64,000 nt of DNA from a plasmid: assembly GCF_988243305.1 (NCBI RefSeq), contig NZ_OZ547137.1. One strand, 5' to 3'. How positions within the stretch are numbered: position 1 is the stretch's first letter; each line of letters starts with the position of its first letter. This document shows positions 40,946 to 41,240 of this stretch, in pieces. Under the pieces are notes generated by a model. It had not been told where the DNA came from. It did no database searches and saw nothing but the letters and a program-made list of their open reading frames with translations. A program made the position numbers and the translations under genes.

Positions 40946-41240
40946 TGGGGATGATATGGAATTAAAACAAGACATCGAAAAAGAGATTATAAAATTAATA
41001 ATATCAGAATACATTAGTACACTTTATTATATACATCTAATTGTACAATTGATGTATAACAAAAGAAGGAAGTAAAATATCATTAGAAATGAACTCATAT
41101 TTCTTGAGAGAGACGTTAATATATCAGTAAAGTGCAAGGATATTCAGGAAGGACGTATATCGCAATCAGATTAAACAGCGCTTGATAACTCGTATCAATA
41201 TCTATATGATAGGGTTTTTCAGCACATTATATTCATCAGG
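40946..41240 (+). pseudogene. Diverged partial copy of the aggR 5' region
   Basis: ATGGAATTAAAACAAGACATCGAAAAAGAGATTATAAAATTAATAATATCAGAATACAT... aligns by eye with aggR 5' at 54100 onward; no intact frame. Confidence 0.5.

Follow-up and report, generated by a model that had tools for sequence, protein, structure and literature searches.

Beside the aat operon of a virulence plasmid of enteroaggregative Escherichia coli (EAEC) lies a short stretch that resembles the regulator gene aggR and encodes no intact protein, which raises the question of what it is, where it came from and whether it still does anything. The DNA analysed here (the window) is a stretch of 64,000 nucleotides from contig NZ_OZ547137.1 of NCBI RefSeq assembly GCF_988243305.1; it belongs to a pAA-type plasmid and, around the stretch in question, is 99.7-99.9% identical to p55989 (NC_011752.1) and relatives. 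An initial annotation, made from the sequence alone, had marked positions 40946-41240 as a diverged partial duplicate of the aggR 5' region and suggested that it might be the relic of an ancestral second AraC-family regulator. Our analysis indicates that the element, hereafter the relic, is very probably the dead remnant of an AggR-type regulator gene (Rns/CfaD subgroup, AraC/XylS family) that once stood tail to tail with aatD across a hairpin-bearing spacer of about 230 bp. The suggestion of an ancestral second regulator is supported by lesions fixed in all copies, by Rns-like bases that the relic has kept and by the position of a counterpart gene on plasmid pAST81_1; the idea of a partial duplicate of the aggR 5' region was not supported. 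The relic is an ordinary, unannotated pseudogene for which no function is indicated.

The two strings quoted in the initial annotation occur once each in the window, at 40956-41014 and 54100-54159, with none expected from shuffles. When 40800-41500 was compared with the aggR region by blastn, 40939-41180 aligned with 54083-54334 in 213 of 253 columns (84%, 12 gap columns, E 7e-64), which bears out the alignment of about 250 bp with the start of aggR that had been made by eye. Over the first 235 nt, identity at aligned bases is 89.7% (201 matches, 23 mismatches). The cfaD and rns genes of enterotoxigenic E. coli (ETEC) match the 5' stretch of the relic at 71-74%. Nucleotide alignment thus confirmed homology, within the N-terminal domain, both to aggR and to other AraC-family genes, and because cfaD and rns match the same stretch the similarity is that of a gene, not AT-rich noise. 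The region is indeed AT-rich, which is what a chance resemblance of low-complexity sequence would need, and an assembly artefact might be imagined in its place; we give these explanations next to no credence, since the E-value of 7e-64 extends across 253 columns, two more collinear segments follow, cfaD/rns match the same stretch, and an identical structure recurs in 42 genomes that were finished independently and in 7 contigs from metagenomes. Low complexity and chance are ruled out by the E-values together with the cross-matches to cfaD/rns.

The homology does not stop at 41240, as had been proposed. Positions 41178-41248 and 41244-41291 match 3' parts of aggR and its flank, and the remnant, instead of covering the 5' region only, spans the whole gene with its middle deleted, from -22 to about 32 bp beyond the stop (40934-41291), in three collinear segments. 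Collinear homology well beyond chance therefore runs from the 5' untranslated region (UTR) to the 3' flank. The parts are as follows.

40934-40955, plus strand: last ~22 bp of the 5' UTR of an aggR-like gene; homology to aggR and to the pAST81_1 gene starts here in pairwise upstream alignments.
40956-41180, plus strand: segment A, the surviving part of codons 1-78, from the N-terminal domain (201 matches, 23 mismatches, 12 gap columns).
40956-41075, plus strand: open reading frame (ORF) of 39 aa, MELKQDIEKEIIKLIISEYISTLYYIHLIVQLMYNKRRK, left by the first frameshift; without a Pfam match.
41180-41181, plus strand: junction of a 428-bp internal deletion (aggR nt 236-663, codons 79-221).
41178-41248, plus strand: segment B, what is left of aggR nt 660-738, from the region of the second helix-turn-helix (59 matches against 7 mismatches, with 18 gap columns).
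41244-41291, plus strand: segment C, last codons, stop position and ~30 bp of 3' flank common to aggR.

The lesions are many. Insertion sequence (IS) DNA replaces everything upstream of -22; segment A carries at least eight small indels, the first frameshift being a 1-nt deletion after nt 35, and a premature stop at codon 21 (CAG>TAG, 41015-41017). With the 428-bp deletion went what remained of the N-terminal domain, together with the first helix-turn-helix and a portion of the second. Another ~41 bp are deleted ahead of segment C, where the penultimate codon has become a further stop (CAA>TAA, 41257-41259) just before the original stop position (41260-41262). The absence of an intact frame was accordingly borne out: where a functional Rns/CfaD/AggR regulator has an uninterrupted ORF of about 265 codons, the longest ORF of the relic has 39 aa. 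AggR itself matches HTH_18 (residues 183-259) and HTH_AraC in Pfam; no Pfam match was found for the ORFs of the relic or for its repaired conceptual product, so the dual helix-turn-helix of the family is not recovered.

These lesions are not peculiar to the window. Searches recovered the full relic from 33 plasmids of PLSDB and from 42 among 5,426 complete E. coli genomes, in every case on a plasmid; the carriers are pAA of the p55989, O111:H21 and O104:H4 types, with identities of 100/99.7% (p55989 type), 98.4% (O111:H21 pDEC15A-1) and 97.0% (O104:H4 pAA). In these two collections no match fell between 86% and 96%, and no intermediate or intact form was seen; next best after the relic came aggR at 83.5-85%, then cfaD/rns at 71-74%. 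Among the matches listed, each record with the full relic also has a second matching place, as in a search with 671 bp, and this place was identified as aggR in p55989 and the window only. The same lesions are present in four alleles (window, O104:H4 pAA, O111:H21 pDEC15A-1 and a Logan contig). The pattern with which the JGI metagenomes were scanned would match the repaired frame as well as the frameshifted one; the scan returned seven contigs, all with the frameshifted, 47-nt form, collinear to aatD and 99.1-100% identical, and no intact-frame version. Disabling lesions are thus fixed in all copies, the four alleles and the seven contigs alike. Since all alleles carry the same lesions, the gene died before the p55989-, O111:H21- and O104:H4-type plasmids separated. 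On the pAA of strain 042 the end of an IS66 abuts the last ~65 bp of the relic, the rest being lost, and the relic therefore predates at least the 042 lineage too. Other aat-positive plasmids are cut downstream of aatD at positions corresponding to window 41106, 41227, 41339, ~41424-41441 and 41472. The leftover ORF varies in length, from 39 aa in the window to 72 aa in the Logan contig (TAA to CAA). This allele (ERR10205621, L013 475-693), with CAA for TAA, is nearer to aggR there (AGC, not AGT). PGAP places no annotation at the site.

Could the relic be a copy of the aggR that resides on the same plasmid (start 54100, against 40956 for the relic)? A recent partial duplication, its differences due to later decay of the copy, would agree with aggR being the closest intact gene in PLSDB and the complete E. 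coli genomes (83.5-85%) and with the first ~40 bp of 3' flank that the two have in common. To polarise the fixed differences between relic and aggR, three outgroups were used: cfaD, rns and one more Rns-like gene. They side with the relic in 13 of the 34 polarisable differences and with aggR in 21; examples of ancestral states on the relic side are Val55, Tyr71 and the third positions of codons 15 and 25. The aggR branch thus accounts for over a third of the polarisable divergence, in changes common to two aggR alleles 3% apart; the Rns-like ancestral bases kept by the relic are lost from all aggR alleles. Over 348 shared columns, p-distances are 0.14-0.16 between relic and aggR, 0.10-0.115 between relic and the variant regulator of pAST81_1, 0.083 between this variant and aggR, and 0.29 between aggR and rns. 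Neighbour-joining bootstraps group aggR with the pAST81 variant in 57% and the relic with the variant in 43%, while relic plus aggR was recovered in 0 of 500 replicates; an earlier tree of 241 columns gave 78% for aggR with the variant. Divergence among the relic alleles, at up to 2.6-3%, is also similar to that among the aggR alleles. We hence consider decay of a recent duplicate very unlikely. Outgroup polarisation and bootstraps rule out a recent copy, and recent copying from the resident aggR is excluded. The comparisons support placing the relic, as judged from its bases, on the AggR branch of the Rns family.

The relic as a dead regulator gene of its own lineage finds its nearest intact relative on pAST81_1 (E. 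coli AST81, NZ_AP043642.1). This divergent AggR variant first surfaced in a protein search with the repaired 78-aa N-terminus of the relic (L012 5165-5399). On pAST81_1 the gene (L021 8750-10063) is intact and encodes WP_032297045.1, a protein of 265 aa, 91% identical to AggR, which PGAP names only 'helix-turn-helix transcriptional regulator'; it was present in 1 of 5,426 complete genomes. Its neighbours are an ANR gene directly upstream and, on the plasmid beside it, a fimbrial cluster of CS22 (cseA)/AfaD type. PLSDB and the complete E. coli genomes, searched in distant mode, yielded no intact gene of the same type as the relic. The protein search with the repaired 78-aa N-terminus retrieved only six short proteins (43-112 aa), the 72-aa allele of the relic ORF among them, and missed AggR itself, so that a full-length relative may exist despite this null result. 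A search with full AggR gave nothing full length between 70% identity and the AggR 90% cluster; it is not exhaustive, because the pAST81 variant (91%) would fall inside that cluster.

The flanks of the two genes indicate where the regulator once stood. The features concerned are these.

41292-41493, unstranded: ancestral spacer between regulator and aatD, with homology to the sequence that follows the intact regulator gene of pAST81_1.
41314-41336: hairpin AAACTCTCT-TTTC-AGAGAGTTT, kept in 042 pAA and pAST81_1.
41380-41410, plus strand: terminator-like hairpin, a 12-bp stem followed by a U-run (-14.4 kcal/mol, z -5.1).
41494-42705, minus strand: aatD, last gene of aatPABCD, convergent with the relic.
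46455 to 41494, minus strand: aatPABCD operon, ending with aatD.
54100-54897, plus strand: aggR, intact, 265 aa, the living relative of the relic on the same plasmid.

The relic had been described as lying next to the aat operon, which is right in that it adjoins aatD, convergent with it and about 235 bp past the aatD stop, and wrong if nearness to the aat promoter is meant. Intact aggR, by contrast, lies next to aap/aar. The 3' flank of the pAST81_1 gene (L021 10045-10341) matches window 41244-41492 in 214 of 298 columns (E 3e-43), both hairpins included, and the aligned flank is the whole spacer, from the stop of the relic to within 2 bp of the aatD stop. The relic therefore occupies the ancestral position of the regulator, convergent with aatD. 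As far as the alignments go, the simplest reading is that in the ancestral arrangement regulator and aatDCBAP would have stood tail to tail. Among related plasmids, none was found to carry at this position an intact gene with the relic's type of sequence. In pAST81_1 there is, however, an intact relative with the same 3' flank; about 5.5 kb of mobile DNA, made up of transposase fragments and a group II intron, now lies between it and aatD, whose flank there matches the window again from 41473. A candidate extra piece of aggR flank beside the IS1 of pAST81_1 was rejected, as only the common IS1 end and AT-rich noise were involved.

The hairpin at 41380-41410 is kept behind the intact pAST81_1 gene, and that at 41314-41336 may be the terminator of aatD on the minus strand. 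The living aggR has 42 bp of 3' flank in common with the spacer and is then cut by an IS1-like end at 54940. Its 3' region (54898-54940) has no strong hairpin such as is found behind the relic, because the IS1-like end cuts the flank 42 bp past the stop. Reportedly, aggR transcripts lack an intrinsic terminator, to which the missing hairpin may relate.

At the other end, homology to aggR and to the pAST81_1 gene stops at about -22, and the sequence further upstream is IS-derived:

40874-40924, unstranded: IS2-like (IS3-family) fragment, standing in place of the promoter region of the relic.
39569-40826, plus strand: complete IS3 of 1,258 bp, inserted 130 bp ahead of the relic and flanked by a 3-bp target duplication (TAT).

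The promoter of aggR and its upstream AggR site are absent from the relic because IS DNA replaces everything beyond -22; no counterpart of that site (window 54016-54026) was found at the relic, which leaves it without a promoter of its own or a site for autoactivation, and no divergent ANR (Aar/Rnr) ORF was found in this IS-derived upstream region. A second IS3 copy, identical and in the same orientation, lies at 46799-48056, so that the two bracket the relic and the whole aat operon. A composite transposon made of these parts was considered and rejected: the copies have separate 3-bp target duplications (TAT and AAC) and therefore look like independent insertions. Directly upstream of the IS cluster, on the minus strand at 37313-38665, is a group II intron reverse transcriptase/maturase gene (ltrA, 450 aa), which is intact in one related plasmid and split in O111:H21 pDEC15A-1.

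Does the relic still do anything? In the supplementary differential RNA sequencing (dRNA-seq) tables of Berger 2016 (PMC5066232) for the O104:H4 pAA, where the starts of aggR, aap and aat were detected, no transcription start site (TSS) is given in 64300-64899 of NC_018666.1. The relic lies at 64385-64750 of that sequence. Rfam yielded no match for it. Between the window and the O104:H4 plasmid the relic diverges by 3.0% (11/366), and the synonymous divergence (dS) of the five aat genes is 0.004-0.020; judged by these values the relic appears to diverge at least as fast as neighbouring synonymous sites, consistent with neutrality.

The opposing explanation is that of a retained functional element: the surviving AggR motifs might serve as a decoy or roadblock, or as an AggR-dependent promoter from which a small RNA or the 39-aa peptide is expressed, with possible effects on the 3' ends of aat transcripts. 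Several observations lean towards it and count against a wholly dead gene. AggR may still bind here, for one of its motifs overlaps the start codon of aggR and the relic has kept the counterpart of this motif with 40934-40955; the corresponding site #4 is listed as 'overlaps with aggR gene start' in Table S4 of Berger 2016 (PMC5066232), and two of the 57 FIMO-predicted AggR sites of the O104:H4 pAA in the same table (#8 and #19, gene-unassigned) lie inside the relic. There is also one perfect WWWWWWWTATC motif at 40995-41005, followed 19-23 bp on by TATTATATA (TATATA at 23 bp, TATTAT at 19 bp), matches of a kind expected in AT-rich DNA; the AggR-dependent promoter as set out in Yasir 2019 (PMC6392122) has WWWWWWWTATC 21-23 bp upstream of the -10 hexamer. 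The relic is, besides, kept together with aatD in 33 plasmids. The evidence for inertness has its own weak places: the absence of a TSS comes from supplementary tables for one strain under one growth condition, and neutrality from 11 substitutions, a number of which fall together at the deletion junction. As to lineage, two placements of the relic compete, as sister of the pAST81 variant (43%) or as basal to variant plus aggR (57%), and as to novelty, it may already have been flagged in the depositors' original annotation of p55989. Our literature search met no mention of the remnant in the papers covered, including Yasir 2019, Berger 2016 and Chaudhuri 2010.

Against a retained element stand the dRNA-seq tables without a TSS at the relic although the aggR, aap and aat promoters were detected, the ORF length that is inconsistent across alleles (39 against 72 aa), divergence at no less than the synonymous rate, the lack of an Rfam match, and the loss of all but the last ~65 bp from prototype strain 042 and of the whole relic from other lineages. 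The motif is, moreover, common in the window and, in the account of Yasir 2019 (PMC6392122), the AggR site is degenerate. Whole-window shuffles, a poor null for a sequence of mosaic composition, predict 6 matches to WWWWWWWTATC in the window where 36 are found, many of them in or near the aat operon and aggR. On balance a retained function seems very improbable. In a more specific form, the surviving AggR motifs (that at the start codon and two internal ones) would still bind AggR and act as a roadblock, local sink or weak antisense promoter shaping the ends of aatD transcripts, which we hold to be slightly less probable again; if true, the plasmid lineage of p55989 and O104:H4 would have put the remains of a regulator gene to new use as a cis-regulatory element.

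The dead regulator gene adjoining aatD may be explained as follows. The two copies would have met on one plasmid either by an old duplication or because two diverged pAA-like plasmids recombined. Intact aggR, 12.9 kb away, presumably supplies regulation of aat, aap and the aggregative adherence fimbriae (AAF) in trans, and because it does so the aat-adjacent copy would have been redundant and decayed. The relic would now be without activity of its own and persist only through its linkage to the aat operon.

The view of EAEC virulence regulation is left unchanged and the practical value is modest, that of an evolutionary marker of pAA assembly. The relic is a fixed, easily scored marker for one major pAA group (p55989, O111:H21 and O104:H4 types) and, together with pAST81_1, helps to reconstruct the IS-driven shuffling of aat, aap, aar, aggR and fimbrial modules. 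Annotation as a pseudogene is advisable, as it avoids confusion in aggR read-mapping or k-mer typing.

Compared with known systems, the relic has in common with aggR the homology from -22 to past the stop, the context of the start codon and the first ~40 bp of the 3' flank; it differs in having no promoter and no codons 79-221, at least eight frameshifts, premature stops and Rns-like bases. The pAST81_1 regulator is the nearest intact relative found (p-distance 0.10, against 0.14-0.16 for aggR) and the positional counterpart, and differs in being intact, about 5.5 kb from aatD and linked to CS22 (cseA) and an ANR gene.

A further comparison is offered by plasmid p948 of ETEC H10407. The ETEC aatD of this plasmid, which we take to be the 414-aa 'hypothetical protein' at 83487-84731, stands apart from cexE-aatPABC, and no matching relic was found downstream of it on p948. 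The plasmid also carries a frameshifted second copy of cfaD, presumably the gene also written cfaD', which has its own ANR gene and is convergent with cfaE. The second copy was named cfaD-2 (PMC5554520). On p948 one divergent ANR gene accompanies cfaD and another the pseudogene copy (43005-43800), so that such a gene is present at cfaD, at cfaD-2 and at the pAST81 regulator and not at the relic: cfaD-2 keeps its ANR partner rnr-2, which is activated by CfaD (PMC5554520), whereas the relic has none. In addition, cfaD-2 is nearly full length (796 bp, with a frameshift and an internal stop), while erosion has gone much further in the relic, whose upstream region is missing. In spite of these differences, both are inactivated second master regulators of the Rns family on a virulence plasmid that holds a working copy, both lie amid IS debris, and both are convergent with a virulence operon, cfaABCE in the case of cfaD-2 and aat in that of the relic.
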